The position numbers and the translations under genes were made by a program. 64,000 nucleotides of DNA from an uncultured virus (IMG/VR IMGVR_UViG_3300025168_000066) (taxonomy: Duplodnaviria > Heunggongvirae > Uroviricota > Caudoviricetes), in IMG/VR virus record IMGVR_UViG_3300025168_000066. One strand, given 5' to 3'. This document shows positions 15,790 through 36,451 of this stretch, in pieces; position 1 is the stretch's first letter; every line of letters begins with the position of its first letter. The notes below the pieces were generated by a model. It did no database searches. It was not told where the DNA came from and saw only the letters and a program-made list of their open reading frames with translations.

Positions 15790-18700
15790 TTAATCTAATG
15801 TAGTAAACCACTTATATGCGTCTTGTGGATTCCTTGATTTTTGTAAACCTCTAAATATAGGGAATAAATCTTCAAAATCTTTTCTTATTTTACGATCTCC
15901 TTTTTGATATTTACCACTTTTTCTTTGGTAAAAAACTTCTTTTTTATCTCCTAATCCTATAGCGTAAGCACCTTCACTTAATAATTGCCCTAATAACTCA
16001 CCGCCTTTTAGTATTGGTCTAGCTGTTGCAGTAGGAGACTGTAATATTCTAAATGCCTCTTTAGTTCCTACTAGCGGCGTCCATTGCATAATCTCTGTTT
16101 CATATCTTTTAGCTTGATACAATGCAAAATTACTTAACCAGGTTTCGTCTTCATCATCAAGATCCGCTAAGAACCCTACTAGCAGCATAGCTCCCATTAA
16201 GGATGATAATTCTACTGCAGTTCTTTTAACATTTTGTTGTTCCATTTCAGTCATTCTACCATAAGCAAAAGATTTGTCTGATATACTCTCTGTTATAAGA
16301 TTCCAAAAAGATATGTACATACCTTGTGTAACTGCCCCTAACTCTTCATCCACATGTATAGTAGAGTTTCCTCCATGTCCGTATCTTCGTCTGATCCCTG
16401 GAGGCATCCAGTTACGGAAAAGCATAAATAATTTACCCCACCAACGTCTTTGTAACATGTTGGTATGCATTTTACTTTTTATCTGATTAGTTCTTCTACT
16501 TAATCCTTGTAGTTTCATTATAAAATCTAGCCTGCTAAAATTAGCTACTCTAGGATCTACAGACATTTTACCGTTATCATCTACTATAAGCATGTCATAT
16601 AAATTAGCTGGTTTGCCATCTTCATTCATAATAACATTACCGTCGCTGTCTTCTAGTTTACCTTCTAAGTTTTTCATTAGCGCTAACATTCTTGTAGCAG
16701 ATAATTCATGTTCAGCAGCTTGTTGTAAAAATAATAGATTACCACTTTTTGCAAGCTTTCTAGATTTACCCCCAACAATTTGATTACCTTCAGAATCTGT
16801 AAATTCTGTTAAAGCATCAAAAAATTCTACTGCTTTACCTATTTTACTTTTTGGGTCAAATCTACCTATGTCTGTAACAGCCATCCCTGAGCTCCAGTAT
16901 TCTCCTTTAGCCCATGCAAGATCTCCTTTATCCATAAATTGTCCTGCAATAGATTCTTGTAACATCATTAAATTATCTAAAATAGACTGATTAGCCCCTT
17001 GTAGTAAGTTAAATGATAAAGTACTTATTGCAGTAAATGAATTTATTGTACCTACTGCTTCATTTGCAGAAAATGTTTTACCAAATATTGTAAAATCTTG
17101 TTGTAAATTACTTTGTCCAAACATTACAGAATCAAGCCACTCTTGCACATGTTTATAGTTGTTACTTTCACCCTCTTTTAACTTAGGCATGTCTATACCC
17201 ATTTGTTTTGCAGCTTTTTGTATTAGCTGTATTCCTGCAGAATTAGTTTCTAAAGTTTTTCTATTCTTTAAAAGGTCTTGGAAAAACATAACCTGCCCAA
17301 CAATTTCACTTTTAGATTTAAAGTTATGCGCCATGTGTCTAAATCTATATAAACTACTAGCAACATCTCTAGAAACTTCTCCAGATGGAACCTTGTTAAC
17401 TGCATAGATTGGAATCTTCTTTTCTATATCTCTGTTATTTTCATTGTAGGTATAGTAATCATGATTAGTTTCTTGTATAGTAAACCCATCTTTTAATGTG
17501 TCTTGTATTGTATTATAAACACCTTTTTCTTTTAGCCTATCAATGTCTTCTTTTCTATAAGTTGGCATTAAATATGAGTATTTGTCCCATCCGTTTTTTT
17601 CCATCTGCTTAAGGCCAATCATTCTTTGCGCCGCTTGAAACTCTTGTATGATAAAATCATAATACTCTTTTAATCTAGGATCATTTTGTATTTTAGTATA
17701 CTTTTCATTAGCATACACAGAAGCTTTAGGTCTAAGAAAGTCTCCAGCAGGCTTTTCGTTTATATAATTTCTATTTCTAAATTTTTCTAGTTCATTTTTT
17801 CTAATACGTGCATTTGATAAAGCTTCTGATTTTCCTACACCCTCATTTTTTAAAGCATTAATAATATCAGCTTGTATTTTAATTTCTTTGTCTAACTTAG
17901 CAAGCTCTTGTTTGTAACCTGGAATAGCTTCTAAATTTTTATCTGTCCATTTAGATAGTTCTTTTCTGTATCTACCTCCTTTAGACTCGCTATTTCCCCA
18001 GCTGTCTAAATCTCTATTAAAACTTGCATAGTTAACATCTCCTTCAGAATTAGTATAATCTTGTTTTCTTGGTATCCCGTGTTTTTTCCCTAACCTATTT
18101 TTTTCTTCTGTAAGTTCTTTGTAGTATCTTTCAGAATCAATTGGATTAACTAGTGCTAATCTTTTCATTCCTCCTATAGTTATTTCTTCTAGTACAGGAT
18201 CATTTAATTCTTCTACATTTGATTCATTTTGACCAGCAGCAAATCTTTCATACATAGGAGCTAATTTAGATTTTAAATCTAGAGTCATATCATTCGACTC
18301 TAAATTTGCTTGCGTTACAGTTTTAACTAGTAACTGTATACCTCTGTCACTAGAATATATTATAGGATCAAAATAATAAGAATACCCACTCTTATCTTTG
18401 TGCGCAGTTGTTAGTTCAGAGACAAGATCTTTATAGTTTTTAAGTTGTTTTTGTTTTAATTGCTCAATATACAGTTTTGATTTTTTAAGTTTAAACTCTT
18501 GGTCTGTAAGCTCTCCTTTATTATATCTTCCTTTTAACTCAATATAAGCAAGATCTGACTCGTCTAAACCTTTAGATCTAGTAAACTTCTTTGCATTATC
18601 TATAAGTTTTTGTATGTCTGCTGGTAAATCTTTATTTGATAGTCCTATCATAGATTGTGCTAGCATAGGAATAACATCTTCTTTAAAATCCTGATCTAAA

Positions 18701-20238
18701 GATTCTGCTTGAGTTAAAATTGCATTTACTTTATCTTCTAAAGTAGTAAACGCTTCAAAAGATTCCATTTCATTCATAAAACTTGTATCTTTTTTAAAAG
18801 CATTTCTTTTTTTAGTAATTAATAAAGACTTTACACTTTGAAGCATTTCTAAACTATCTAGCTGTTTTTTTAGCTCCCACATTTTTCTTAAATTTTCTGA
18901 CGTACCTCTTTCATTTTCCGGTATAGCCATAATATTAGCATATGCTACCTCTGTTCTGTTTAACGCATCCCCCATTGCATCTACAAGATCAAATAAATCT
19001 TCTACTTTTGTTACTCTTTGTAGACTGTTTTCTAATCTTCTTAAGGTAGTTAACTGATCATCACTAACTTGATCTTCAGGTAATTTATTTATTTCATATA
19101 TTTCCTGCGTTATTCTAACTCTTGCATTATCAACTAATTCTTTTAATTTTACTTCTTCTTTGCTGGCTTGTACATAGGGACTTAAGCGATTAATCATACC
19201 TTCAGATCTTAATTTTCCTGCGAACATTTCTTCTGCAAGCACTGCAGCTGTATTAGGACTAACTCCAAATAATTTACCTATAGCTCTAAACAATTTATTA
19301 AATAATCTTTGTAGCTTGTTAGGATTTTTTCTAACAATTTTAGCTCCTTCTAGGCCTATTGCGGTAGCTAACACTTCTTTGTCTAGCATCTCTCCTTGTA
19401 ATTCAGGATACGCTTGCTCTACTTGGTTATACAATTCTGTGTCTCTTAGTTCTGCTATAGCTTGAGCAACAACCGGATCACTTACACCTAATAAATCTAT
19501 GTATATATGTCCAAACTCATGATATGTTGTATCTTTTTTAACTTTTTCTGGATTAATTCTTATAGTTGGTGTTCCGGTCTGAACGGGAGTTCCGTCATCT
19601 TCAAAAGCAACTTCATCAGCTTCTATTTGTACTTGCCCTATATTATCTATACTTGCATCAAATACAACGTTAACATTTATTCCTGCTTTAGCAAAAGATT
19701 CTTGTAACTCTCCTGCTACTCTATATGCATTTTTAAGTTCTTCCTCTTCTAAGTTAGAAAATTTACTGTTACTAGTATTTTCTCTTCTAGCTAAATCATC
19801 TAAAAAAGCATCATCTCTTTCAGCTGCAGGGGCTGCAAATCTTAAGTATTGATCAACATCTGTTTTATTATCACTTGTAATATCTGCATTGTTTGTTCCT
19901 TCAGCAGGTATTCTTTTTAAAAGATCTTCATTTATAGTTAGTACATGTAATTCTGCGGCTGGAGAATAAATTGTTTGTGGAGTCATTTTTACATACTCTG
20001 TAGAAATTAATCCTGGATACTTATTATTTATTCTTTTAATGTCTCTAAGTGCAGATCTAAAATTATTTTGTTGTACATAAATTGTATTTTTAAATTTCTT
20101 AGTAGCTATACTGTGATCTCTTAATATTTTATGTACTTTGTTTACATTCTTATTGTCTGGAGCAACAGTATCCATATACCCAAATAAATCCGTGTATAGT
20201 TTACTTTCTACTCCGTTTAAATAATATTTACATGCCAT
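15790..20238 (-). CDS. Giant virion ejection/cargo protein with zincin-like metallopeptidase domain
   Basis: HEFGH (HExxH) with downstream KEVLA; adjacent to vRNAP; C-terminal hydrophobic segment; single Cys at residue 3. Confidence 0.75.
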   Translation of the reverse strand: MACKYYLNGVESKLYTDLFGYMDTVAPDNKNVNKVHKILRDHSIATKKFKNTIYVQQNNFRSALRDIKRINNKYPGLISTEYVKMTPQTIYSPAAELHVLTINEDLLKRIPAEGTNNADITSDNKTDVDQYLRFAAPAAERDDAFLDDLARRENTSNSKFSNLEEEELKNAYRVAGELQESFAKAGINVNVVFDASIDNIGQVQIEADEVAFEDDGTPVQTGTPTIRINPEKVKKDTTYHEFGHIYIDLLGVSDPVVAQAIAELRDTELYNQVEQAYPELQGEMLDKEVLATAIGLEGAKIVRKNPNKLQRLFNKLFRAIGKLFGVSPNTAAVLAEEMFAGKLRSEGMINRLSPYVQASKEEVKLKELVDNARVRITQEIYEINKLPEDQVSDDQLTTLRRLENSLQRVTKVEDLFDLVDAMGDALNRTEVAYANIMAIPENERGTSENLRKMWELKKQLDSLEMLQSVKSLLITKKRNAFKKDTSFMNEMESFEAFTTLEDKVNAILTQAESLDQDFKEDVIPMLAQSMIGLSNKDLPADIQKLIDNAKKFTRSKGLDESDLAYIELKGRYNKGELTDQEFKLKKSKLYIEQLKQKQLKNYKDLVSELTTAHKDKSGYSYYFDPIIYSSDRGIQLLVKTVTQANLESNDMTLDLKSKLAPMYERFAAGQNESNVEELNDPVLEEITIGGMKRLALVNPIDSERYYKELTEEKNRLGKKHGIPRKQDYTNSEGDVNYASFNRDLDSWGNSESKGGRYRKELSKWTDKNLEAIPGYKQELAKLDKEIKIQADIINALKNEGVGKSEALSNARIRKNELEKFRNRNYINEKPAGDFLRPKASVYANEKYTKIQNDPRLKEYYDFIIQEFQAAQRMIGLKQMEKNGWDKYSYLMPTYRKEDIDRLKEKGVYNTIQDTLKDGFTIQETNHDYYTYNENNRDIEKKIPIYAVNKVPSGEVSRDVASSLYRFRHMAHNFKSKSEIVGQVMFFQDLLKNRKTLETNSAGIQLIQKAAKQMGIDMPKLKEGESNNYKHVQEWLDSVMFGQSNLQQDFTIFGKTFSANEAVGTINSFTAISTLSFNLLQGANQSILDNLMMLQESIAGQFMDKGDLAWAKGEYWSSGMAVTDIGRFDPKSKIGKAVEFFDALTEFTDSEGNQIVGGKSRKLAKSGNLLFLQQAAEHELSATRMLALMKNLEGKLEDSDGNVIMNEDGKPANLYDMLIVDDNGKMSVDPRVANFSRLDFIMKLQGLSRRTNQIKSKMHTNMLQRRWWGKLFMLFRNWMPPGIRRRYGHGGNSTIHVDEELGAVTQGMYISFWNLITESISDKSFAYGRMTEMEQQNVKRTAVELSSLMGAMLLVGFLADLDDEDETWLSNFALYQAKRYETEIMQWTPLVGTKEAFRILQSPTATARPILKGGELLGQLLSEGAYAIGLGDKKEVFYQRKSGKYQKGDRKIRKDFEDLFPIFRGLQKSRNPQDAYKWFTTLD

Positions 20239-20241
20239 AGT

Positions 20242-23200
20242 TTAACATTTTTTGTTTATTGTATCGTCTTCTTCTTTTATTTCTTTGTTTGTTTGTGTAA
20301 AATAAAAATCGTTTGGCATTCTTTCTGTATTTACAGCATTTAAATTAAAACTAAAGACGCTTTTCTTTTCTAAATTTGTTGTTCCTATCTCAAGTATTTT
20401 ATTAGGAACTCCTAAAGGAGATAATTGTTGGTATGTAGCATCTCCTGTAAATACATACATTGTACCTTCTTTTGTTCTAAAGTATTGCAAGTACCCTTTA
20501 TCCTCATTAAATACTTTAGGGTCTTCTGGAGTAAAACTGATTTCACCATCAACAATAGCACGTGCTCCTACTTTTATTGTGGGTAATAAAGGCTTTCCAT
20601 TAATCCTTCTATTACCATAATTTCTTATAAACTCGTGTGTAAAGTTACCAAAACTTAAGTAATTAGAAGTATCTAGTTGTTGAATTTCTTGCTCAAAAAA
20701 CTCTACAGGTGATCCTACTCCTGGATTTAGTATATCTGTTGTAAATACTTCTGAAGGTATTAGGTCTATATAACTACCATATGTAGGAGAAAATCCATTT
20801 GTTAAAAATTGATTTGCTACTAAAACTGTTCCAAAATTACGTATTTTATCTACTGGGCTAGTTAGCATCATAAACAATCCATTGCTAAGCTCATTCTTAT
20901 CAGCTGTAGATAAATCTGTTCCAGTATCTAATACTATTCGCGTTATACCTGTTTCTTTATTACTAGAATCTTCTTTTAACAGTCTATAAAATGGATTATT
21001 ATTTAATTCAGGATATTGTAATCCAATTTCTCTTAACCTAAGTACTATATTTCTAGAACTTTCTTTTGTATATAAGTTTTCTATTACTGATCTAGAAAGT
21101 ATATCAGATAAAGGACTGTGAGCTTGAGTCATAATAGATAAGTTTAGTGCTCTATCTATAAATTTATGTTGACCCGCACTAAGAATATCTAATTGTAAAA
21201 TGTTTTTAATATCTTCTTTACCTTGCTTAAATGCAGCGCTATTTTGTATAAATCCTAAACTACTCATGTTATTTAGTATAGTATCAAGAACTCCTCTATA
21301 TGCAATACCTGTATGATTCTGAGGACTAGATGTTCCTTGTTGATGTACTATATAATCTTTTGCTCCTTTGATTAAACTTTGATTACCTAAATAAAAAGCT
21401 TCGGTATCTAAATGATTATTTATAGCTGAGATTTCGTTAAGATTGTCTAAATTTCCAGGTGTAATTATTTTATTTACTCTTTGTAATTGCTTACCTGCCA
21501 TATAAAATTTTGCAAAATTTATTAAAAGTCTATCATTAGGAATACTTTTTGATGCTAAAGAATCAAAAGTCATATTAGCTATCTTTCCATCTTTCATATC
21601 TATAGAATCTAACAATTTATTTTCTGGAATACTTTTTATAGTTGCAGTTTCAATTAGTTTTACAATAGCAGGCTGTGTTAAAAATTCTACTACTGTTGTA
21701 ATTGGTATACCAGTCATTAGCATTAGTCCTGCTACAGGTATTGTATAAACATTATCATTTATATCTAATTGTATAGGTGATTTTGCAGCGTCTACAGCTG
21801 CAGACAAGTATTCAGAAATGTTTGCATCAGTATAGTTACCTTCTAAGTCTACAGTAGTAATTCTAGACATTTTTTGCCCATTAATTGTAGGGGCAAAGTC
21901 AGAATTTATATTTAAAACTTTTAATGTTTCTGCTACGTTTCTACCTGCAAGCATGTTTGACCATAATCCTCTACCTGCAATCCCTACTTTGTTTCTACTT
22001 TCCATCTGTAGTTCTGACAAAGGATTATTATAATTTATTTTTTTACTAGATATTGCTAACCGGTCTAGTGTAGCATTTGCTACTGGAGTCATAACTTCTT
22101 GTAAATGTTTTTTATCTAGTAATATACTTTTAAATACTTCGTATATAATATTATTTCTTTCTTGTTTGGCAGTAAGTTTGCCTGTTTCTTTAAATATAAG
22201 GTGTAGTTTATCTATATCAAAATCACTACCTTGTTGTATAGTTAGGGCCCCCGGAACCATAATAGCTTTAGAATAATTTTCAGGTAAAAAGTCAACAACT
22301 TTAAATACCATTGCAGAGCTCTTACCTTGTTGTGGTATACGATACCCTATAAACTCTAGTCTAGGATCGTCTTCAGCAATTTTACCTTCTATTTCTTCTG
22401 CTGTAAATCCAAGAGTACTAGCTTTTATTCTTACTTCTGCCCCTCCATTACTACCATTATACATTTGTAGTTCTCCACTAATGTTATGACCTCCTAGTTC
22501 TGCTATTTGTACTGCTTCTATACCTTTTAACTTTTGATTATAAATTTCTTTACGAAATATACCTGCAACCATTGTCTCAAATTTAGATGTAAAATTTGGA
22601 AAACTTAGTGGTATCCTAAATTTGTAGTCAAATGGTCCATTAGGTATAATATCTAAACCGTCTAAATAGTTTTGAGGTAACTCTTTATCTTTAATTTCCT
22701 GTTCTATTCTACCTCTAAGCAATTTTAAATGATTTAGTTTAGCATTTTTGTGCTCAATAGTTTCTTTATCTTTAATTTTAGCAACTTGACTTATTCCTAA
22801 CTCTCTTAATACTCTGCTAGTATCTTCTTCTATGTTTTCACTAATAGCCATCCCAAACATTTCCTGAAGCATAGCTCCTGGAATCTGTTGTCCTTCATAG
22901 ATATACATTTCATTAGGAAGTACATTAGTAATAAGGTTTTTTCTAATTTGTCTATTAAACACAACTTTTCCTTTTTCTTCTGTAGGAATCATTTGCGGAA
23001 ATCTTAATTTACTAGAGTCCATAACCATTGGAGTAGAAAGATCTAATACTCCTGTTCCTTGAAAATCTTGTACATTAACTCTTGCTCCTTTTGTAGCGCT
23101 CTCTGTGTGGACTACGTGTATACCTTTCTTAAATGCATCAATCATTGTTTGCAAATAGCTAAAGTCTCTTGCAAGCTGTGGAGTTACTACCATATATGAA

Positions 23201-26200
23201 TTCTTATCCATATGCATAGTACTAACACCATTTTTTACATTTGTTTGTTCATGATATGGCTTTAAAGGTACGGTAGGTCTATTGTAGTCCCCTCCAGCTA
23301 AATATTCTTTATATGCCTGCTCATCTAGATTGTTCCATTTACCCATACCTTGCATAATTCCTCGGTACATTTCTAAGCTAATAAAAGATTGCGCATCTGA
23401 TTTATTAGTAGTTCTATATAGTTCAGCTATTTCTTTTCTTAGTCCATTATTTATTAAACTTTCTACAACAGCATCTGACTTTTGTGTATCTGTATAATTA
23501 AAGTCTTTTATTACTAATGCATTATACTCAGGCATCATACCATACTGTGTATCATTTTGATCAAAGCCTTGTATAGCTAATTTACTTCCAGGCGTATTTA
23601 ATAATCCACTACGCTTGTAAAAATCTGCCTCATCTTTTGCAAAAGAATACCCACTTCTTAAAAATTTAGTTACTTCTGCTCTTCCTACAAACTCTTGGAA
23701 TATAAAATCTTTTATAAAATCTATTTGTAAATTGTTACTGCTTAAAGATGCATCAACATCTACAGGTAATCTAATGTCAAGATTTGGTAAAGTTCGTTGC
23801 ATTTCGTTTTCAAACTCCTTTAACATATTTTCAACGTAAATTACTTGTTGATCTAACAATTTATTAAATGTTCTTACATCTGTTTTGTCTGTTTTATTTA
23901 AAAAAGTTCCTAATAGTTTAGACATGTTAGTTCCTTCAGTTGTTTTTATGTCTTCTAATCCATAAATTTGTGTCATTGTAAATACAGAACCATCTCCGGC
24001 ATAAGGACTACTACCTTTTTTATAATGATACCCTTCCATTAATTTAGATGTGTTGTTTGTTACTCTAGCATTTTGTATTTCCCTGTTTGCTTGATCTATT
24101 CTAGCAAGGTCTTGTATAATAAGCCCTTCTATTATTTGCTTTCTGTTTAGTGTAATACCAAACTTTTTTAAACTATTTACTTTAGGTACTTGTATAAATC
24201 CTAAGTTTGGACGGTCCGCCTGTATGTGTAAAGCAGAATAAGCAAAATCACTATCTTTATTTATAAACCCTATCATTCTTTCTATTAAAGATGCTTTGTT
24301 ATTTTGTCCTTCATAATCTACAACAGTGTTTCCTGTTTTATATGAATCTAAAGTATAGTTTCTAAATGCTTTTCTTCCTTTAACAGTTTTTAATGCTTCT
24401 AGTAGTATTGAGTTGTATGTAGTGTCAGGACCAGGCTGGGGTACAAACAACGGATCTTTTTCTAACTCAGAAAAATAACGTTTTCTTTCTTCTGTTTGTT
24501 GCGGATCGTTAATTAATTCTATTAGTTCATCTACAGATGTTGGCTGATTAACAGGGTAATATGATTTATTTGTACCACTAATAAATGTACCAAAAGGTTG
24601 ACTGTCAAATAAAATAGACAACTGAGCAATTTTTTCAATAGTACTACCTTCTTTATTATGAAAATTTGTGCCCGGAGTATTTTCTAGTATTAATAAAAGT
24701 TTTTCAAAATTTTCATTAGGACTAAATGCAAACTCAGAAAAAAGATACCCTTTAGTAACACCTTGCTCATTACCTATTGCATAATACCTTTTTAAATTTT
24801 CTCTTGTAGATTCTAATGTAGGTCCGTAGTTCATTCCTAGTTCCCACAAATATGTTCCTAGCGCATCTATTTGCGCTTCACTCCACTCTGCTAGATCTCT
24901 ATTACTTTGTGCTGTTTTTACTACTTTCCATGCGTTTTGTATACGCTCTAACTTTTCCGGTTTAACTTCAAGTTTTCCGTTAACCTCTCTATAAGGAGAT
25001 CTTGGGTTTACTGTTATATATTCTACAGAATTATTTATAAAATCTTTTCGTGATCTTTTTGTAACACTGCTTTGATTAGAATTAATAATTAAATTTTTAG
25101 TTGTACCATCTGATTGATTTTCTTTTTTAAATAATAAAAATCTTTTATATGTATTTTTAAATGCTGCAAACATAGCAGCTTTTTGTCCCGGATTTAATCC
25201 TACTAGTCTTTCTGTAATTGCTTGTACTTCAGGTTTGTACTCTGAATAGTAATCTAATTTTGATACCATAGCATCAAAGGTTGGTTGACTAACTGCTGCT
25301 TCTGTTAGAATAGATACTACTCTAGCTAAAGGTAAAGTTTCTGGATACCCTAATATATTAGTCCCTACTTTAATATTTGTTAAAAGCGCTTTAGCTCTTT
25401 CGGATAATTTAGTTTTAGGGTCTTCTTGTATTCTAGACATATTATAGATTCGTATAAACTCTTCATCTATTTCTTCTATAAGAGAGCTTTTATCTAATAG
25501 TTTCATGTCTTGTGTAGACAAACTGTCTCTTAATAAATCAAATACTCCTACTGTTTGTATGTTTCCTAATGCATCATATTTACTGTCCCACTGGTCGTAA
25601 GCATTTATAAATACATCCCAGTTTTGTCCTAGCTCTATATTTCCTTCTTCTATCTTTTTTACAAAATTATCATATCCATTTTCACCAGATGTTAGAGTGT
25701 CATACAATTCTTTTGCTTTTTCTATAGTAATACTATTATTAAATGCTGCTTGTAAAGTTTTATCTTTTAAGGCACTAACTAGATTACCTCCCATTTTATA
25801 CCCTACTTTAATTTGTATATCATTTGCAAATCCTAGTAAAGTGTTTAACAAAGCAGATTGTATCTGCATGTTTTCTTTTTCAGATCTATTTAAATCAAGT
25901 ACTTTATTTTTTTGTTTATTAGATAAAGCTACAGGAAAACTTTCTGATTTATTATTTAAAAACTCATATATACCTATACCTTGAAAAAGTCTAGGCTCAT
26001 TGTTTTCATCTAAATTATTAAAATATTGTTCTATTTGATTTATATCTTGTTTTTCAAAATTAAATCCATAAAATTTTTTAAACTCTTCCCCATATATACT
26101 TTCGTATATAGTTTCTGCTTCTGCATTAGACCCTACAGCATCTCTTAAATCTTTTAAAAGTTTAGAGTCTTTACCATTAGGCAATACAGCTCTACCGTTT

Positions 26201-26217
26201 TCTATTCTACAACTCAT
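20242..26217 (-). CDS. crAss-like virion RNA polymerase (single-chain, two-barrel)
   Basis: 1991 aa; YRIPQQGKSS followed by GSDFDIDKL (the crAss-type DFDID catalytic motif); also DAQSF, LKP and AVDAAK motifs. Confidence 0.9.
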   Translation of the reverse strand: MSCRIENGRAVLPNGKDSKLLKDLRDAVGSNAEAETIYESIYGEEFKKFYGFNFEKQDINQIEQYFNNLDENNEPRLFQGIGIYEFLNNKSESFPVALSNKQKNKVLDLNRSEKENMQIQSALLNTLLGFANDIQIKVGYKMGGNLVSALKDKTLQAAFNNSITIEKAKELYDTLTSGENGYDNFVKKIEEGNIELGQNWDVFINAYDQWDSKYDALGNIQTVGVFDLLRDSLSTQDMKLLDKSSLIEEIDEEFIRIYNMSRIQEDPKTKLSERAKALLTNIKVGTNILGYPETLPLARVVSILTEAAVSQPTFDAMVSKLDYYSEYKPEVQAITERLVGLNPGQKAAMFAAFKNTYKRFLLFKKENQSDGTTKNLIINSNQSSVTKRSRKDFINNSVEYITVNPRSPYREVNGKLEVKPEKLERIQNAWKVVKTAQSNRDLAEWSEAQIDALGTYLWELGMNYGPTLESTRENLKRYYAIGNEQGVTKGYLFSEFAFSPNENFEKLLLILENTPGTNFHNKEGSTIEKIAQLSILFDSQPFGTFISGTNKSYYPVNQPTSVDELIELINDPQQTEERKRYFSELEKDPLFVPQPGPDTTYNSILLEALKTVKGRKAFRNYTLDSYKTGNTVVDYEGQNNKASLIERMIGFINKDSDFAYSALHIQADRPNLGFIQVPKVNSLKKFGITLNRKQIIEGLIIQDLARIDQANREIQNARVTNNTSKLMEGYHYKKGSSPYAGDGSVFTMTQIYGLEDIKTTEGTNMSKLLGTFLNKTDKTDVRTFNKLLDQQVIYVENMLKEFENEMQRTLPNLDIRLPVDVDASLSSNNLQIDFIKDFIFQEFVGRAEVTKFLRSGYSFAKDEADFYKRSGLLNTPGSKLAIQGFDQNDTQYGMMPEYNALVIKDFNYTDTQKSDAVVESLINNGLRKEIAELYRTTNKSDAQSFISLEMYRGIMQGMGKWNNLDEQAYKEYLAGGDYNRPTVPLKPYHEQTNVKNGVSTMHMDKNSYMVVTPQLARDFSYLQTMIDAFKKGIHVVHTESATKGARVNVQDFQGTGVLDLSTPMVMDSSKLRFPQMIPTEEKGKVVFNRQIRKNLITNVLPNEMYIYEGQQIPGAMLQEMFGMAISENIEEDTSRVLRELGISQVAKIKDKETIEHKNAKLNHLKLLRGRIEQEIKDKELPQNYLDGLDIIPNGPFDYKFRIPLSFPNFTSKFETMVAGIFRKEIYNQKLKGIEAVQIAELGGHNISGELQMYNGSNGGAEVRIKASTLGFTAEEIEGKIAEDDPRLEFIGYRIPQQGKSSAMVFKVVDFLPENYSKAIMVPGALTIQQGSDFDIDKLHLIFKETGKLTAKQERNNIIYEVFKSILLDKKHLQEVMTPVANATLDRLAISSKKINYNNPLSELQMESRNKVGIAGRGLWSNMLAGRNVAETLKVLNINSDFAPTINGQKMSRITTVDLEGNYTDANISEYLSAAVDAAKSPIQLDINDNVYTIPVAGLMLMTGIPITTVVEFLTQPAIVKLIETATIKSIPENKLLDSIDMKDGKIANMTFDSLASKSIPNDRLLINFAKFYMAGKQLQRVNKIITPGNLDNLNEISAINNHLDTEAFYLGNQSLIKGAKDYIVHQQGTSSPQNHTGIAYRGVLDTILNNMSSLGFIQNSAAFKQGKEDIKNILQLDILSAGQHKFIDRALNLSIMTQAHSPLSDILSRSVIENLYTKESSRNIVLRLREIGLQYPELNNNPFYRLLKEDSSNKETGITRIVLDTGTDLSTADKNELSNGLFMMLTSPVDKIRNFGTVLVANQFLTNGFSPTYGSYIDLIPSEVFTTDILNPGVGSPVEFFEQEIQQLDTSNYLSFGNFTHEFIRNYGNRRINGKPLLPTIKVGARAIVDGEISFTPEDPKVFNEDKGYLQYFRTKEGTMYVFTGDATYQQLSPLGVPNKILEIGTTNLEKKSVFSFNLNAVNTERMPNDFYFTQTNKEIKEEDDTINKKC

Positions 26218-29200
26218 TATTTACAATTCTTTTTATTAAATTTATCTTTAAAATTTTGAGGAACTACTGGAGCTTCTTTACTCATTTGTTGTTCTGCCTG
26301 CTCAAATATATCACTTTCAAAATATTCTTTAACAGAGTTTTCATTTTTAGTTAAAGTAGCAGCAATTGATGGATCTATTTGTACTATTTCTTTATAAAAA
26401 AGTAAATCATTTATATTAAATTGTAAATCATTTAAAATTCTATAAGCCAATGTTTCAGATTCTAATGCTTCTTCTGGTAAACCTTGATCTAGTAATTCAT
26501 TATAAGTTTTACCATAAAGCATTATACTTGCTAAATTCTTATCAGCTTTATTTGGTTTAATATCCTTTGATTGAGTTTTATCAACTCTTATATCTTTTAT
26601 AAGTTGAGAATTTTTTAAATCGGTTTTAGTAGCAAGTTTTCTTCTGTCAAATATTTCTTTTAATTTAGAAGAATATTGAGTTTTTTTAGCTGCTGGAGCT
26701 TCTGTAGATGGTTCTAGTTTAGACTCTTCAATAACCTCTTGTGCAGTTTTACCAAATAAATTTCCCCTTTCAAATGTCACCCTAGGATTATTAAATAAAC
26801 TTTCATTTATTCTTGTAGTATCTACACTCAATATAGAGTAATGTCCTTCTCCCTGTACCCTATTACCGGTTTCTGTACTAGAAAATAAATATTCTTGGTA
26901 ATCATTATAAGTTAATCCTGTAACAGGACTAACATATTGTTCTGTAGTGTTAGCAAAACCTTTATCTACATGATATTTTTTATTATTTAAAAAACTTTCA
27001 AAATCTTCTTTAAGATTAAACTTATCGCTTTCTGTATTTCTTTTTCCTCTAGAAATAAATGTTGAACCAGTACTATCTTCTACTAGTTCAACAATATTAT
27101 AAGAAGCCTTTTGAGTATTTAAAGCTTTAATCATTTCACTTTCAGTAATTCTTATTAGCTTTTCTAATCTTGGGCTGTAATACACTAAATATTGTTCTCC
27201 TCCTCTAAAAGTGTCAAACGTTAAAAAACTTGGGTTTTTATCTGCATTTTGTGGTTGCACACTTGCTGCTACTATTTGTGCAGCTAACCCGTAATTTTTA
27301 TTTTGTATAGCTTCAACAACTTTCTTTTTAGCAGCTTCAGATAAATTAGCAGTACTAGTTAATACAATCCTAGGCTTACCTCCAGGCACATTTTCCGGCC
27401 TTGCTACTACTGCTATCTGATCTATTCGACCACTAGTTTGTTCTGTTTGTACTGAAGCTTTTATTTTAGGTAAATCTTTTTGATTTTTATCAGGACTTAC
27501 ATCACTAACCTGCCATTGTACTATATCTGTTTCTCCAGGAACTCCAGATGTAAATGCTAGTAATACATTATTTCTACTGCCTCCTCCAATCTCTTCTTCT
27601 ATATTATAAAAATAACTTGTGTCTGTTGCTTCTGATAGTACAGCATTGTTATAGTTATTAGCTATAATTTCTGATATTTTTGTAGTTACTTTTTCACCAG
27701 CTTTTAATTTTTCTAGTATTGCTACTCTTTCTGCACCAAGGCCTGCAGGTAATGTCCCTATAAGCTCACCATCAAGTCTTATATATATAGGAGTTTGTTC
27801 AGCTTCAGTAGGTTTTCCTTTGTGATTTTGTGTAAAGAAATCATTTTCTATAATTTCAAAAGTTATTTCTCTCCCAACAGCATCTCCAAGTAATACACTT
27901 TGATTAATAACAATAGGTTTTCCATCAAGTGTATCTCCCTCTTGTAAATTAGGAATTCCGTTACCATCTACTCCCACTTTCTTTTTATTAGTTACCCATA
28001 AAGTAGGATTTTCTTTTAAACTAATGCTTAAGACTGGGGCATCTTCTGTTTCTTCCATTGGAAGCATGTCTTCAAGGCTTAGTTGTGCAGGATCTGATTT
28101 TGTTTTGATCTGCCTTTTAGGTGGAGCAGATTCTTCTTCTACTTGAATATCAGCTAAGTCTCCTACTGGTTCGTCTTCTTTCTCAACTTGTTTTTCTTTT
28201 TCAATTTGTTCTTTATTATTTACTTCATATTCTAATTCTTCAATTGCTTTTTTTAAACCTTCAAGCTCTGAGTCTGTAAGAGTAGTTTGATCTATTGCTT
28301 TAAGATTTAGTATTTGTTGCTCAATAGGAAGACCTTCGTAATAATCTAAATACTTTTTCTTTTCTTGTTGTTCTTGCGCTTTAAGTTCTTTTTCTTTTAT
28401 ATCAGCATCAACTTTTACTTCATCTTTTGCATCTTCTACATTTTCTTTAATGTCTTTTTCTGTTTTAGCATCTCTAATTTCTTTTTTATTTTTAAGATCT
28501 TTTGCTGCTTGTTTTGCCTGTTCTTCTCTTTTTACTCTTTCTTCTTCAAACAGTTCTTGACTGTACTCATTAGAGCTAAGTTTAATATGCGCTTCAACTG
28601 CAACTTGATTTTCTGCTAATAAGTCTAAATAATCTCCAGCTTCTTTACTAAATTCTTGTATTTTTAAAGGGTCTACATTATTTTTTATAAGTAATCCTAA
28701 TACTTCTTCAAGTCTTTTTTTAACGTTAGCTTGCTCTTCTTTAGCAGTATAGTCTTCTGCTTTAGTTCCACCAAACTCAGGAAGTGCTAAAATATCTTTC
28801 ATAATACTTCCGTTGTTCAAATTAACTGAACCGTCTAGTATTCCCTGCATTTTATCGTGTATGCTTTTTAATCTGCTATTTCTATCTTTAATCCCATACA
28901 TCCCTAATATAAGCTGAGCTCTTAGCCCTTCTCTTCTTTGATAAACAGTTTCTTCAGCTTTTCTTTCTGCCTCTGTCATTCTCATTCTAGGAAGACCCGT
29001 TTTTGGATCTTGAGAAGGGAATGCTTTATTTATAGAATCATATGTTTCTTTAAAAGACTTATATTTTTCTCTTAAGTTTTCAACTATTTCTTCTTTTGTT
29101 TTACCTGTTTGATCTTTAATAGATTCTTCAGTATTGTAGCCAAACGATTTAGCAAATTCTACATCAGATAAAGATGCAGCATCATTTAGTTTTTCCATAA

Positions 29201-30764
29201 ATACATCAAAGCCTCCATTTTGAATAGCTTCAAATGCATTGTACATAATAAGTTTATTTTGAGCGTCTTTAAATGCTTTTATATTTCCTTCTTGTTTACT
29301 TTGTTCCATTTGCGTTAAAGCAGCTGTCATCATCTTTGATGTCATTCCTTTATTAGCAGCATTTCTTAAATATCCACCATTTAATAAATCAGTTAAATAT
29401 TTAGCATTCTTTTTTCTTTGTGCGTAAGGCTTTTGCACTGCGCTAGTAACACCAGAAATACCTCCCCCTACTATGGCTCCAACTAACATAGACTCTAATC
29501 CTTCTTGTGTTCCAAACGTTTCATTAAGGCCTTTTAACATAGATTGACTCATATCTGCAGATCCTCCATTAAAATATTTATCTGTGTGATAGTCTATTGC
29601 TCCTACTTTAGATGCAAATTGCCATCCCTCTTGAAAAGCTTCAGTAAGAGCTCCTTCAGCAGTAGGCTTAAATCTTGATAACCCTGTTCTAAATAATCCT
29701 CTACCAGCTGTTTTGTCTATAACAGATTTAGTAGCGGCATCTAAAGCTACGTCTCTATTTATTTTAGATGCTGTTTTAAATCCTGCTAGTTGTTTACCAA
29801 ACATAAGTAAGTTAGTACCAGTTAATACTGGTAACTGCATTAAAAAATCTGCATTACCTGCAGAGTACGAAGCATTTAATATGTTTTCAAGAACTTTGTT
29901 TCCTAATTCAAACTCTTTTTCTAATCCTCTTTTTTCAAGTTCTAGATTTACTAGTCCTTCATATGCTTGTTTTTGAGCTTCTCTTGCTTCTACAGACGCT
30001 TCTGCTAAAGACATGTATAATCCCATTTCTAACATATTAGCAGATTTAAGTATTGCCTGACCTCTGTTTGTTTTAAAAGCTTTATCTGCTAGTTTAGTAC
30101 CGTTTGTAATAGCTTTAGAAACGTTATATATACTTTTAGATTTAGCTGCTTTAGATATAAGATTTGTTCCTCTCATTATTGCTCCTGTACCTCCTGTTAA
30201 AAACATAGTAGCAATAGATCCTAAACTATACCCAGCACCATTTGCTACAGTATCTGCCCAAAAGTTAGCAGTTCCTAGTTTTTGACCTGTAGTCATATCT
30301 ATTTCTGCTTGAGTTCTGTAATTAGGCATAGCTTCACGCATCCAATCGTTAGCCTTATCTACACTTTGCCCTATAAAATTATCATAGTAATATCCTGAAC
30401 CTAAAAATAATTCTCCAATCCCTGCTACTACTCCTAATGTGTTTTCTGCAACAGCTCCTACAGTTGTAACTAATGCTTTACTTATACCGTTAAGCCATTT
30501 TTCTCCTGTGCCTTGATTCTTAGCTCTTTCATCGTCCCAATTAAAATGCCTAGTAGTAGGTACGTCATATTTTTTATATTTACTTAAATCATCAGTGTAA
30601 ATATTTGTAAAGTTTATAGTATCAAACGGATCTATTCTAGAAATTCTATCTAAAGATTTTTTATCTATCTCTGGATTATATACTATTGGCATACCTTTGC
30701 TAGGCGTTTTAGGCGTAACATCAGGTAAATTAGTTTGACTGCTTATTGTTATAGGTATTCCCAT
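26217..30764 (-). CDS. Giant virion ejection/cargo protein (membrane-interacting N-terminal half)
   Basis: 1515 aa; Gly/Ala-rich hydrophobic segments, E..QEGWQF motif, long charged coiled coil; upstream of vRNAP. Confidence 0.7.
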   Translation of the reverse strand: MGIPITISSQTNLPDVTPKTPSKGMPIVYNPEIDKKSLDRISRIDPFDTINFTNIYTDDLSKYKKYDVPTTRHFNWDDERAKNQGTGEKWLNGISKALVTTVGAVAENTLGVVAGIGELFLGSGYYYDNFIGQSVDKANDWMREAMPNYRTQAEIDMTTGQKLGTANFWADTVANGAGYSLGSIATMFLTGGTGAIMRGTNLISKAAKSKSIYNVSKAITNGTKLADKAFKTNRGQAILKSANMLEMGLYMSLAEASVEAREAQKQAYEGLVNLELEKRGLEKEFELGNKVLENILNASYSAGNADFLMQLPVLTGTNLLMFGKQLAGFKTASKINRDVALDAATKSVIDKTAGRGLFRTGLSRFKPTAEGALTEAFQEGWQFASKVGAIDYHTDKYFNGGSADMSQSMLKGLNETFGTQEGLESMLVGAIVGGGISGVTSAVQKPYAQRKKNAKYLTDLLNGGYLRNAANKGMTSKMMTAALTQMEQSKQEGNIKAFKDAQNKLIMYNAFEAIQNGGFDVFMEKLNDAASLSDVEFAKSFGYNTEESIKDQTGKTKEEIVENLREKYKSFKETYDSINKAFPSQDPKTGLPRMRMTEAERKAEETVYQRREGLRAQLILGMYGIKDRNSRLKSIHDKMQGILDGSVNLNNGSIMKDILALPEFGGTKAEDYTAKEEQANVKKRLEEVLGLLIKNNVDPLKIQEFSKEAGDYLDLLAENQVAVEAHIKLSSNEYSQELFEEERVKREEQAKQAAKDLKNKKEIRDAKTEKDIKENVEDAKDEVKVDADIKEKELKAQEQQEKKKYLDYYEGLPIEQQILNLKAIDQTTLTDSELEGLKKAIEELEYEVNNKEQIEKEKQVEKEDEPVGDLADIQVEEESAPPKRQIKTKSDPAQLSLEDMLPMEETEDAPVLSISLKENPTLWVTNKKKVGVDGNGIPNLQEGDTLDGKPIVINQSVLLGDAVGREITFEIIENDFFTQNHKGKPTEAEQTPIYIRLDGELIGTLPAGLGAERVAILEKLKAGEKVTTKISEIIANNYNNAVLSEATDTSYFYNIEEEIGGGSRNNVLLAFTSGVPGETDIVQWQVSDVSPDKNQKDLPKIKASVQTEQTSGRIDQIAVVARPENVPGGKPRIVLTSTANLSEAAKKKVVEAIQNKNYGLAAQIVAASVQPQNADKNPSFLTFDTFRGGEQYLVYYSPRLEKLIRITESEMIKALNTQKASYNIVELVEDSTGSTFISRGKRNTESDKFNLKEDFESFLNNKKYHVDKGFANTTEQYVSPVTGLTYNDYQEYLFSSTETGNRVQGEGHYSILSVDTTRINESLFNNPRVTFERGNLFGKTAQEVIEESKLEPSTEAPAAKKTQYSSKLKEIFDRRKLATKTDLKNSQLIKDIRVDKTQSKDIKPNKADKNLASIMLYGKTYNELLDQGLPEEALESETLAYRILNDLQFNINDLLFYKEIVQIDPSIAATLTKNENSVKEYFESDIFEQAEQQMSKEAPVVPQNFKDKFNKKNCK

Positions 30765-33286
30765 TAGTAAATATAATCTTCTGTTCCGTTTTCTTTTACA
30801 TACTTTTCAATGTATTCTAAGCCTACTTTTTCTGACATAGGTTTATAACTACCATCTGCTTGTCTTACATGTATAGGGTAATCTGGGTCACTCTTATACT
30901 TAAACACTACACCATTAACTTCTTGTGTTCCTTTTGTTGGATCATTTTCATCTACTTGTACTTCATGTCTAAATAACTTAGGCTCCCATTCATCTACATT
31001 TGCCCACTGTCCTCTAGCATAAAGTGATCTTACTCTATATCCTGTTGAATTTGTATAAGTGTCTACTGAAGGCATATTAAATTGACTTGCTTTAATATGA
31101 AAAGTTTTAATTTTACCTTCACTTTTTACAGCTATAACCATAAGAGGAGTACCATCTACCATAGATATATTAGATAATCCTGACTGTTCTGGAATTATTT
31201 TAAATTCTTTATCACCATAAGTTTCTTCCATTACTTTATCCCATGGTTGAGGTTCATTACTAACATCACTGTACGTTGCAAAAGCTCCTGGAATACCTTC
31301 TTTTATAGTATCTCTTATTTCTTTTCTAGTATCTTTAGTGTTATCACCAAAACTTGTAGCTATAGTGTCATCAAATTTAATTTGTTGAGTATTTAAATGT
31401 TTTTCTATTCCTTTTTCAAATCTACTTACTTCTTTATCATAATTACTAGCAAACTTTAAATAGTTCATTGCTAAACCAGCATATATTTCTTTTCTACCTA
31501 GCTTATTTACAGCAGCATTTGGATAACCTAAAGGAACTATTCCAGAGTTTTCTATGTCATTTGGATCAAGATTTTGTTCTCCTAATACTCTTAATAATTC
31601 TGTTTGAAATGCATGTCCTTGTAAAAGCTTATTATTTGGACTAGAAGCAAAAGCGTTATTATCTCTCATCCAATCCATTGCGTCTTTAACTGTTGCATCA
31701 GCTGGTAATTGAGGACCTGTTCTTTTACCTCCTTCTTCATCTTCTGTTTCAAAAGTTGGAGATTGTAGTGCTTTAAGTAACATTTCTCCTGTAACTTGAA
31801 ATCCTCCTCCATAAGAATCTGAATCTGTTGCATATTTATTACTAAGCTCTTGATCATAAACTTCTTTAGTTTTACCTCCTGTTGCATTAAGAATAGCATC
31901 TTCTATTTGAAGTTCCATTAAATCTACATTGTCTTGATTTCTTTTAACTAATTTGGATTCACTTTTTATATCTTGTGCTACAAGATTATACTTTAAAGCC
32001 ATTGCTTCTACATCTTCATCTGTATTAACATTTAACATATCAGAAGTAAAATCTTCTCCAAATTTTGTATTTCTAGAATCTAGTAAATTTTGAGACTCGT
32101 TTTGAAAAGCTCTTTTATCTTTTAATGTTTTACCTCCTAATACATCTGCAGTTAAAGCCCCACTAACTTCTCCTTGTATAATTACTTGACTATCATTTGG
32201 CGTTAAACTTCCAATACCGTCTTCATCTAGTACTGTAATATCTTCTGATCTAGCTTGATTACTATAAACATATTTATTTTGTGCGTCTTGTAAATATTGT
32301 TTATTTAAATCATCATGAGTTATACTAAGTAGAGTACTTTGCGCTCCATTTTTATCAGAATTTTCTATAATTTTTTCTTTATATTCTTCAAATTCTTCTA
32401 TTCTTTCTGCTTTTTTATCGTCTGTTAAGTCTTCATCAGATATTGTATCATCTATTCTACTATCTATTATAGATAAAGCTTCATTTAGTTTTTCTTGTGA
32501 TTCTTCTTCAGTAAACATATAAGTACTAAGATCTGCTTCTTGTCTAAGATAAGAGGATACATCGTCTCTTTTTAACACTGCCCCAGTTACGTTATAAACT
32601 AAATCAGAGTCTACTTCTCCTAGTATTTGGTCTCCTTTTTTAATTAGCCATACAGGAGCTCCTGCATCTTCACCTGGTTTTAGTTTTCCATAGCTATCTA
32701 AAACTATTTCAAAATTACCGTCACGAAGTTCATATCCTTCTATTTTTGTTTGTCTTGCTACAACATCTTTCATTGCTTTAGCAAACTCATCATTTACATC
32801 TACATAGTTAGCAACACCTGCCCCAGAAAAATAAGAGTCTTGGTCTACAGTTCCTGAAGGAGTATACTGAATACCTTTATATCTAGATTTAGATTGTGCT
32901 ATTTTTCTTTGTTTTATAGAATCTGTTATATCTCCTTTAGATACTTTTTCATTTAACATAGTTTCATACGCAGTGTATAGATCTTTACTCCTTTTGATAG
33001 GAGTATAATCTTTAACAAACCCCATAGCATCTCTATGTATAGTCATGCCTAAATTTTCATAATCTGTTCTTTGAGCTCTTTCATCAATACCAGCATTATA
33101 TTTATCAGCCAAAGTATATAATGTTTCATTATCTTCTTCTAAAGCTTCCATATTCATAATAGACGTAGACAATGCATTATCTGCTTGCATGTTAGCCATG
33201 TACTCTTGCCTTTTTAACTGGTTAACTTGTACTGACCCAGTGTCTTTGTACATTGATTGGTATTGTGGTAGTTCGTATTTTGCCAT
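30764..33286 (-). CDS. Virion cargo/ejection protein
   Basis: 840-aa acidic, Cys-free ORF inside the cargo gene cluster. Confidence 0.6.
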   Translation of the reverse strand: MAKYELPQYQSMYKDTGSVQVNQLKRQEYMANMQADNALSTSIMNMEALEEDNETLYTLADKYNAGIDERAQRTDYENLGMTIHRDAMGFVKDYTPIKRSKDLYTAYETMLNEKVSKGDITDSIKQRKIAQSKSRYKGIQYTPSGTVDQDSYFSGAGVANYVDVNDEFAKAMKDVVARQTKIEGYELRDGNFEIVLDSYGKLKPGEDAGAPVWLIKKGDQILGEVDSDLVYNVTGAVLKRDDVSSYLRQEADLSTYMFTEEESQEKLNEALSIIDSRIDDTISDEDLTDDKKAERIEEFEEYKEKIIENSDKNGAQSTLLSITHDDLNKQYLQDAQNKYVYSNQARSEDITVLDEDGIGSLTPNDSQVIIQGEVSGALTADVLGGKTLKDKRAFQNESQNLLDSRNTKFGEDFTSDMLNVNTDEDVEAMALKYNLVAQDIKSESKLVKRNQDNVDLMELQIEDAILNATGGKTKEVYDQELSNKYATDSDSYGGGFQVTGEMLLKALQSPTFETEDEEGGKRTGPQLPADATVKDAMDWMRDNNAFASSPNNKLLQGHAFQTELLRVLGEQNLDPNDIENSGIVPLGYPNAAVNKLGRKEIYAGLAMNYLKFASNYDKEVSRFEKGIEKHLNTQQIKFDDTIATSFGDNTKDTRKEIRDTIKEGIPGAFATYSDVSNEPQPWDKVMEETYGDKEFKIIPEQSGLSNISMVDGTPLMVIAVKSEGKIKTFHIKASQFNMPSVDTYTNSTGYRVRSLYARGQWANVDEWEPKLFRHEVQVDENDPTKGTQEVNGVVFKYKSDPDYPIHVRQADGSYKPMSEKVGLEYIEKYVKENGTEDYIY

Positions 33287-33289
33287 AAT

Positions 33290-36200: not shown

Positions 36201-36439
36201 GCTGCATAGTCTTCATTTTTACTAAATCTATTTTGATTTACAAGTCTTAAACCGGCTCCACTAGGAATAGCGTATTGTCCTTTTGTTCCTTCTAATAAAG
36301 GAACGCTCATTTTAGTAGTTAACGCTGGGGTATTGTTTGAGTTTAAACTTGAGCCTACTGATAAATAAGGATCAAGAGATCCCATAGTTTGATTTATTTT
36401 ATACTTACCTGTTAATTTTTTTAATATGTTATTTTTCAT
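33290..36439 (-). CDS. Modular virion cargo protein (beta-rich modules, GG linkers, THxxGG/EVEGG domain, coiled-coil tail)
   Basis: GATHDQGGI...EVEGG...GET...FFSDHL domain of the kind seen in crAss-like virion proteins; four xxGG...YxxGG linkers. Confidence 0.6.
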   Translation of the reverse strand: MKNNILKKLTGKYKINQTMGSLDPYLSVGSSLNSNNTPALTTKMSVPLLEGTKGQYAIPSGAGLRLVNQNRFSKNEDYAAGGLEAYLNKNINNSDASFESTIGAGIGGGSINGQPNTGVYGNADLSLYQNSFDKKTQFGIKGSYGTENAPNAGGYLGVTAKRNGLTKRGLFRGLGIEGNMGYNFKTKMPTAGLNFNLQDGGTRQYEDGGMDLSLKKTNSYNCGPGVTQCGDTESPLTLQSDLGFNYNTGTGTTSAELGAGLQASLGRGDTRSGAPIIAGGLRGNAGIQGLTGANPTFGTNLDAYGQVGFKRKNLNGAHDWSRGRAGFEAGAYGNYDVMNKNLKDVGLYGSYGALRGNVGYDMQNKGIKAGIGLNFEDGGMREYNDGGYFNKAASFGLKALKAIPRVAGALGRGAKSLTLPSMLLGSGDLGQGSTVTDENGINRFTGEQTNNMFNSLEDGGMRKMYNEGGVNLPGGTMEPIPGSDAVVFKGATHDQGGIGVDEQTEVEGGGFAPDGTPLEGETMDKVVMSKGGPKDYFFSDHLKKGGMSYAQQHKNILQNGGGQEQINMLAKMQEKAANRDPKQVAKLGGVMKYEQGGILGETFDEYVERMQAERRDNQIVGEDQFNKNMERLQRREDRRPPIVEQKRRKLRNLQLFVDQGRELTPEQQEEYNILSNDRNLNDGPLAIKTVEMQQIPNEMPEPELAQSTDINEGIPKFISAGPGRMDYIKNPDYFEPSEPSALNDAGVVGMSQEEVDLAKGIDNTYDAYLARTQMSGEIPEGGILSEKKYNRQQRKIARKINRQLNPGMPLEAKIGAAAQFLPAIGAMLTKQKDLEEFKYNSGFENPIIAERVKGQVYDAPNQNEARARLASAYTGQQRFLDTSGAGAAGLSNRQALFAKKLAAEGTLGAQESKDQITAENLTKKSKEQADARNAQNALAASTTNAQMAQREADRFAAVENANTNLRNAQQNEKVTNRMNILNNFSQGIAGVMGDSMQYKADERVAKAQGLYGIYERDRLKSLYSGKINPATGNAYTDQDIALMASGLKS

Positions 36440-36451
36440 TCTTTTATATTT

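Follow-up and report, generated by a model that had tools for sequence, protein, structure and literature searches.

The window analysed here (the whole stretch of 64,000 nucleotides from the uncultured virus IMGVR_UViG_3300025168_000066) carries on its minus strand a block of three giant genes, termed A, B and C, whose products are most likely packed and injected by the phage. The three proteins contain only four cysteines in 4988 residues (A1514, B3, B1991 and C3), all of them at facing ends, and the facing ends of A, B and C are probably tied head-to-tail by predicted disulfides, which would replace the peptide bond of the fused form found in relatives; this reading draws on sequence comparison and on analogy with cyanopodophage A4. 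Crassviruses, to which the window belongs, are the most abundant phages of the human gut, and the question addressed is how an RNA polymerase cargo of nearly 700 kDa is stored and then injected via a narrow tail. In other crassviruses a single Cys-free polyprotein of ~5300-5600 amino acids (aa) is encoded, of which A, B and C, judged by homology, are the three pieces. The genes and the four Cys codons were located as follows:

26217..30764, minus strand: gene A, a 1515-aa cargo protein with Cys1514 as its sole Cys, homologue of phi14:2 gp67 and crAss001 gp47 (phmmer)
26223..26225, minus strand: TGT codon of Cys1514, the penultimate residue of A, conserved in 5/5 close relatives
20242..26217, minus strand: gene B, a 1991-aa virion RNA polymerase (vRNAP) with Cys3 and Cys1991 as its sole Cys (phmmer to PDB 6VR4)
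26209..26211, minus strand: TGT codon of B Cys3 (MSCRIENG...), read from the sequence
20245..20247, minus strand: codon of B Cys1991, read from the sequence
15790..20238, minus strand: gene C, a 1482-aa zincin protein with Cys3 as its sole Cys, homologue of phi14:2 gp65 and crAss001 gp49
20230..20232, minus strand: TGT codon of C Cys3 (MACKYYLNG...), the Cys being invariant in alignment A2

Protein A ends in FNKKNCK, B begins with MSC and ends in INKKC, and C begins with MAC; the outer ends of the trio (the N-terminus of A and the C-terminus of C) are without Cys. In the other 39 open reading frames (ORFs) of the window, Cys accounted for 203 of 15103 residues (1.34%), a background at which ~67 Cys would be expected in the 4988 residues of A, B and C. 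The probability of finding four or fewer was 5e-24, and that of the placement, with one Cys in each of four 3-residue terminal windows, was ~3e-12; a chance origin of the pattern in the window is excluded. An earlier reading of the letters alone (the first-pass annotation) had reported these four terminal Cys, a count that was borne out, together with a shared NKK(N)C tail, which was found in this phage and its closest relative but not elsewhere (KVCK, KVCP, KVCRKK). At the A|B junction the DNA reads TGT AAA TAATG AGT TGT, with TAATG as the overlap, and at the B|C junction TGT TAA ACT ATG GCA TGT (stop, 3 nucleotides (nt) and ATG). Genes B and C share a reading frame and are parted only by TAA and one codon (20236-20247), the corresponding gaps in relatives being 0-11 nt, and no sign of readthrough between B and C was seen at these positions.

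Conservation was assessed in a profile scan of IMG/VR, in which the best 80 of 519 relative loci were examined; clustering of the polymerase core at 80% identity gave 57 lineages, window included. Pieces were assigned to homology classes A, B and C by single phmmer runs, and the 58 split junctions at which both partners could be seen were retained (A|B, 16; B|C, 42), junctions with a short, partial or unclassified piece being excluded. Upstream pieces carried a Cys at most 12 residues from the C-terminus at 57/58 split junctions, and downstream pieces a Cys within the first 10 residues, likewise at 57/58, compared with 2/49 and 2/49 for the corresponding ends of control ORFs from the same loci (Fisher p ~1e-26). 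Outer ends were Cys-free throughout (0/24 A N-termini and 0/50 C C-termini), the one flagged case, L012_1665, being a B piece. Head-to-tail pairing of facing ends, as postulated in the first-pass annotation, has strong comparative support, Cys pairs being seen at 57/58 split junctions but neither at fused junctions nor at outer ends. The Cys pair was also present at junctions that were not counted (L012 A|B, L036, L082 A|BC, L086 and L088).

The position of the Cys floated between 0 and 9 residues from the C-terminus in upstream pieces and between positions 3 and 6 in downstream pieces. It was encoded by TGT in 49 and TGC in 8 upstream pieces, and by TGT in 47 and TGC in 10 downstream pieces; gaps between partner genes ranged from -8 to 507 nt, and the flanking DNA was wholly different in GC-richer lineages (for example, L035 and L043). 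All five complete close relatives, at 58-73% identity, had the same four Cys and no others, the B tail varying around its Cys (KKC, KVCK, KVCP, KVCRKK), and the pattern was kept at 21-38% identity with variable flanks. In 14/80 loci (L041, L047, L049, L056, L063, L066, L067, L069, L070, L071, L073, L085, L087 and L089), TAG must be read as an amino acid (Gln) for long ORFs, each complete (untruncated) giant protein then having 19-72 TAG in frame.

Where the pieces are fused, the Cys are gone. Of the giant fused ORFs, six that are complete (5329-5639 aa; L020, L022, L026, L027, L029 and L032) contained zero Cys. Among lineages with B and C fused, a junction Cys was found in 0/10, eight of these proteins being Cys-free altogether and that of L044 having two Cys, both distant from the junction. 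The B+C fusion of L082 carried only the N-terminal Cys, that is, the A|B pair alone was kept, and A+B fusions retained solely the B|C pair (e.g. L024, L031, L055 and L088). Internal Cys amounted to 0.062% over 115 pieces, a strong depletion; close internal Cys pairs in L069 and L070, sought as fossil pairs at fused junctions, were not junction-like. Parsimony on the core tree (FastTree, 678 core columns, 72% of nodes with support of at least 0.9) required at least 8 state changes at A|B and at least 4 at B|C, or at least 12 in all.

The two kinds of end differ in anatomy, upstream pieces ending in a short tail and downstream pieces beginning with a small add-on ('cap') domain:

20245..20379, minus strand: tail at the C-terminus of B, ~45 residues long, variable and tipped with Cys1991 (alignment A3)
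25918..26217, minus strand: N-terminal add-on domain of B, ~residues 1-100, with the motif PNGxxSxLxxxL, homologous to the N-termini of B and C of other lineages
19879..20238, minus strand: N-terminal domain of C, ~residues 1-120, counterpart undetected in fused relatives

In the B tail the Cys was invariant in 10/10 rows of alignment A3, and the rest was poorly conserved and often basic. At the other end, 12 B-type and 13 C-type pieces, taken from different lineages, formed one similarity cluster in their first 160 residues. Two modules occur there, singly or together, CPNx(5)WKxL...G.E..AY..W and PNGxxSxL[FY]xxLL...F..WFG.W, and the second of these opens both B and C in the window. The N-terminal motif that the first-pass annotation had seen in common between B and C is therefore real and general across the B and C pieces of other lineages, and the docking-type domain that it had suggested has its counterpart in this add-on at the N-terminus of downstream pieces. 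A hidden Markov model (HMM) of the domain matched 36 N-termini and 2 internal sites and had no match in fused polyproteins; similarly, for 21 C pieces the first 130 aa gave no significant match in 12 fused proteins. Internal PNG modules (L056-type C, L038) had no Cys in front of them, unlike N-terminal ones; selection on the Cys is for its terminal position.

Comparison with fused relatives shows that the split sites differ. The B piece of L015 aligned to them from residue 49 (E 4e-26), its first 48 residues being left out of the match, and its residues 49-130 corresponded to residues 1976-2057 of fused L032. Residues 59-130 of the L072 B piece mapped ~1100-1300 aa further along fused proteins matched by both (for example, in L024, 1553 for L015 and 2872 for L072), and because the two B pieces map differently, the polyprotein has been cut at different sites, each provided with a Cys-tipped cap. 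A model of B 1-200 built with AlphaFold2 from 17 aligned N-termini showed a small alpha/beta domain (predicted local distance difference test of 81-85 at residues 11-80) with Cys3 just ahead of it, and the sole Foldseek match of this model was 6VR4 (gp66), at E 8e-4. Against PDB sequences, a profile of the 17 N-terminal domains gave one chance-level match (E 3.3), and Pfam returned nothing for two 160-aa N-terminal segments. A complex prediction combining the N-terminal 400 aa of C (A2) with the C-terminal 150 aa of B (A3), run without controls, reached a median score of 0.25 against a mark of 0.32.

Additional breaks were found in a few loci. In L039 (7356-9949), two GIY-YIG endonuclease genes (PF01541) split the C region after B, and every new end was Cys-tipped (MANC...KKCS, 92 aa; MSC...DRVC, 345 aa; and further pieces). 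The B piece of L072 (L072:9809-15013) carried a true intein at residues 376-669 (Hom_end_hint, E 5e-22, with LAGLIDADG); its internal Cys (376, 579, 585 and 615) may be spliced out, since all four fall from the first Hint residue (376) onward. In L062 (6848-15723), a 255-aa ORF containing four Cys breaks the polymerase gene, whose halves have no Cys tips there; this interruption is possibly an intron with its endonuclease. A ferritin-like ORF (PF00210) was situated exactly between Cys-tipped partner genes in three lineages, once at A|B and twice at B|C, and it could conceivably have a redox or iron-related function there:

L030:14294-14782: ferritin-like ORF (PF00210, E 4e-15)
L072:9325-9795: ferritin-like ORF (PF00210, E 3e-12)
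L077:8017-8517: ferritin-like ORF (PF00210, E 4e-19)

The Cys pattern, the add-on domain and the way in which the pattern is conserved and co-varies with splits and fusions were observed; from these we infer the following course of docking, disulfide formation, threading and release in crassviruses. The short, variable, basic, Cys-tipped tail of the upstream piece would dock on the Cys-tipped N-terminal domain of the downstream piece, and once the particle has come into an oxidising milieu the two thiols would form an interchain disulfide, making A-S-S-B-S-S-C one linear chain again. Such a chain would thread the narrow tail singly, in fixed order and in a 1:1:1 ratio, passage as a single thread being permitted by the location of the links at the extreme ends, and the reducing cytoplasm of the host could part the pieces. 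If true, the end-to-end tie rule predicts the order of ejection and explains the free fusion, splitting and relocation of these genes in evolution. A bolder and rather speculative extension is that the Cys-tipped tail and the add-on domain form a portable kit that lets the polyprotein gene break anywhere with chain continuity kept. This would constitute a third healing route beside introns and inteins, namely a disulfide staple that forms in the particle and is reversed in the cytoplasm of the host, and it would also set the 1:1:1 ratio and the order of injection. Homing endonuclease genes (L039), inserted genes (the ferritin-like ORFs of L030, L072 and L077) and rearrangement (crAss001 gp47) could be the sources of the breaks.

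Four other explanations were weighed. The ends may pair with their Cys binding metal jointly or acting as non-covalent contacts of the dock, for which there is only a slim chance. Co-variation demands pairing and no specific chemistry, gut phages mature without oxygen, and the ferritin-like gene between partners in three lineages could hint at metal or redox chemistry; two thiols alone, however, make a poor metal site, and no conserved His, Cys, Asp or Glu is adjacent to them. In A4 the same pattern corresponds to a disulfide (PMC12002296), and a floating Cys position suits a flexible tether better than a fixed contact. It is somewhat less probable again that the terminal Cys act singly, in homodimers (A-A, C-C), in cyclisation of B (Cys3-Cys1991) or in anchoring to a third virion component. 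Outer ends are without Cys, both members of a pair disappear together upon fusion, and the link seen in A4 is heterotypic (PMC12002296), although sequence cannot tell which thiol meets which and B has a Cys at both ends. Cyclisation of B is not general, because just a single Cys upstream and a single Cys downstream remain in the A+B|C and A|B+C forms.

That the Cys codons are a by-product of a nucleotide signal at the junction (translational coupling or start context) is very improbable: the window junctions are tight and both have TGT near stop and start, but among relatives the gaps extend from -8 to 507 nt, the Cys may be encoded by TGC as well as by TGT, and the contexts differ completely in GC-richer lineages such as L035 and L043. 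In addition, crAss001 gp47 is Cys-tipped though on the other strand, and of the remaining genes in these loci just 2/49 have terminal Cys. Chance, or common descent without function, has the small number of residues involved and nothing else in its favour, and is dismissed in view of the placement in the window alone (P ~3e-12), the retention of the pattern at 21-38% identity and the at least 12 independent architecture changes with matching gain or loss of Cys.

Several points weigh against a head-to-tail disulfide tie. The disulfide and the end-to-end contact in crassviruses are predictions from sequence, and the gut habitat of crassviruses is anoxic, which puts the oxidant in question. Reductive release is not essential to the module, because the fused relatives cannot be released in this way. 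Two exceptions were found among the 58 junctions, an upstream one in which the Cys of L081 A lies 23 residues from the end, and a downstream one in which the Cys of L083 C is at residue 20 by the start call used; this call is probably too far upstream, because the Cys lies in a stretch resembling the start of crAss001 gp49. Several gut lineages have 1-21 additional internal Cys, and 9 A+B-fused lineages have internal Cys that were not placed relative to the A|B junction. The labels 'AB' and 'ABC' are partly length-based in loci where A homology was undetected (L026, L027, L031, L084, L085, L088 and L089). Finally, a phi14:2 preprint suggests polyprotein cleavage (10.1101/2020.03.07.982082), and if this occurs before packaging, covalent continuity is not required.

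The identity of the block follows from its position and from its polymerase and zincin motifs:

37530..42830, minus strand: crassvirus muzzle protein gene (PF25731, E 1e-50), fixing the genome position of the module
30764..37528, minus strand: upstream cargo-type genes of 358, 1049 and 840 aa, with 0, 2 and 0 Cys, outside the Cys-tipped chain
22210..22224, minus strand: DFDID catalytic motif, B residues 1332-1336 (alignment with 6VR4)
19507..19521, minus strand: HEFGH zincin motif, C residues 240-244, read from the sequence

The muzzle gene (37530-42830, 1766 aa) matched PF25731 crAss_MUZ at E 1e-50, marking the window as crassvirus, and on the minus strand three ORFs poor in Cys come after it, ahead of A, B and C. 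Protein B matched phi14:2 gp66 (PDB 6VR4) at E 5e-27 with DFDID aligned (phmmer), and phi14:2 gp65, the homologue of C, has been assigned as a zincin (10.1101/2020.03.07.982082). The window thus holds a gp66-type DFDxD protein and an HExxH zincin at a position after the muzzle, as expected for the vRNAP cargo module of crassviruses. Other searches were largely negative: Pfam had no match above cut-off in A, B or C (C giving only a weak sub-cut-off SHOCT), PHROG returned nothing for B or C, a PDB sequence search gave only 2 matches at E ~0.7 for A and none for C, and megablast of gene B against a phage collection found no match. The single PHROG match of A was 32390 (function unknown, E 2e-19), and a Kyte-Doolittle scan of A revealed no hydrophobic segment; the label 'channel protein' given to A in the first-pass annotation is therefore unsupported.

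Cys content was unusual elsewhere in the window as well. Minus-strand ORFs of 787 and 736 aa (53449-55812 and 60946-63156) contain 41 and 40 Cys, respectively (>5%), and matched nothing in Pfam, in sharp contrast to the Cys-free cargo block. The 1049-aa protein (33290-36439, minus strand) has two Cys, 222 and 229, 7 apart; crAss001 gp45 likewise has two, 390 and 398, 8 apart, and the corresponding ORF in the close relatives L001, L003 and L005 has zero.

The terminal Cys were conserved when their positions were counted in Crassvirales trios, as the first-pass annotation had proposed, including those of phi14:2 and crAss001. In phi14:2 they are Cys1797 of 1797 in gp67, Cys3 and Cys2179 of 2180 in gp66, and Cys3 in gp65. 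In crAss001 they are Cys2339 of 2341 in gp47, Cys5 and Cys2404 of 2412 in gp50 (which also has Cys1334), and Cys5 in gp49. The crAss001 gp50 clade (with L007:9109-16347 and crAss001-like loci) retains 1-2 internal Cys (1334; 1331 and 1404) besides the terminal ones. The A homologue of crAss001, gp47, is encoded on the opposite strand and has kept its C-terminal Cys; the claim that the chain follows gene order is accordingly true of this window but not a rule.

Both trios have been detected in virions by mass spectrometry, that of phi14:2 as reported in the preprint (10.1101/2020.03.07.982082) and gp47, gp49 and gp50 of crAss001 in a source that places them in the cargo zone of the capsid and states that they must unfold in part (PMC10172136). 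The latter source, a structural atlas, describes many structural disulfides in the virion tail and says of the order of the cargo only that it 'is likely to be controlled' by how the proteins pack and interact with one another. The phi14:2 preprint notes that the three proteins are fused in some phages (10.1101/2020.03.07.982082). In the text of its preprint version, as distinct from the published Nature article, cysteine and disulfide occur 0 times, and the available part of the crAss001 atlas, supplements aside, makes no mention of terminal Cys of gp47, gp49 and gp50 or of links among them (PMC10172136). A literature search combining cysteine or disulfide with crAss or Crassvirales and polymerase gave no description of the terminal Cys pattern.

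Among known systems, inteins and split inteins also restore continuity to the protein of an interrupted gene, with Cys at the junction; they make a peptide bond, whereas the link proposed for the window is a reversible disulfide. Split inteins at the window junctions were rejected as a candidate, no Hint domain being found at the ends by Pfam, which does detect the real intein of L072 B; there is also no room for intein halves, because only 0-9 residues follow the upstream Cys and the downstream Cys is at positions 3-6. The vRNAPs of N4 and DEV (Schitoviridae), which presumably belong to a polymerase family different from that of crassviruses, are single polypeptides and hence, unlike the proteins of the window, have no junctions or terminal Cys. 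They resemble the window in being giant ejected vRNAPs (N4 gp50 and DEV gp71) with suppression of Cys (PMC11445570). That they are without Cys, as the first-pass annotation had it, is stated in the same source and related there to passage through the periplasm.

Closer to the window, phi14:2 gp67-gp66-gp65 and crAss001 gp47-gp50-gp49 are homologous to A-B-C and obey the same terminal-Cys rule. The fused crassvirus polyproteins (~5300-5600 aa) show collinear homology to B, C and partly A and are Cys-free like ejection proteins, with a peptide bond where the window has a Cys pair and with the Cys-tipped N-terminal add-on undetected. The nearest likeness in layout is cyanopodophage A4 (Anabaena phage A-4L), in which gp27 (1717 aa) has Cys1715 and gp26 (1114 aa) has Cys5 as the only Cys. 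Cryo-electron microscopy of the A4 pre-ejectosome showed that the C-terminal helix of gp27 docks in gp26 and is locked by the Cys1715-Cys5 disulfide (PMC12002296). No homology of the crassvirus pieces to A4 gp27 or gp26 was found with phmmer (E<=0.01), with the HMM of the cap or with Foldseek of the B N-terminal model; because the sole-Cys layout is shared and these tests were negative, the window would work like A4 without being its relative. A4 has one Cys pair, no RNA polymerase and no comparison of split and fused forms, whereas a chain of three or more pieces is predicted for the crassvirus module. Taken together with A4, the proposed end-to-end tie rule suggests that podophage ejection proteins generally make use of tethering by terminal disulfides.

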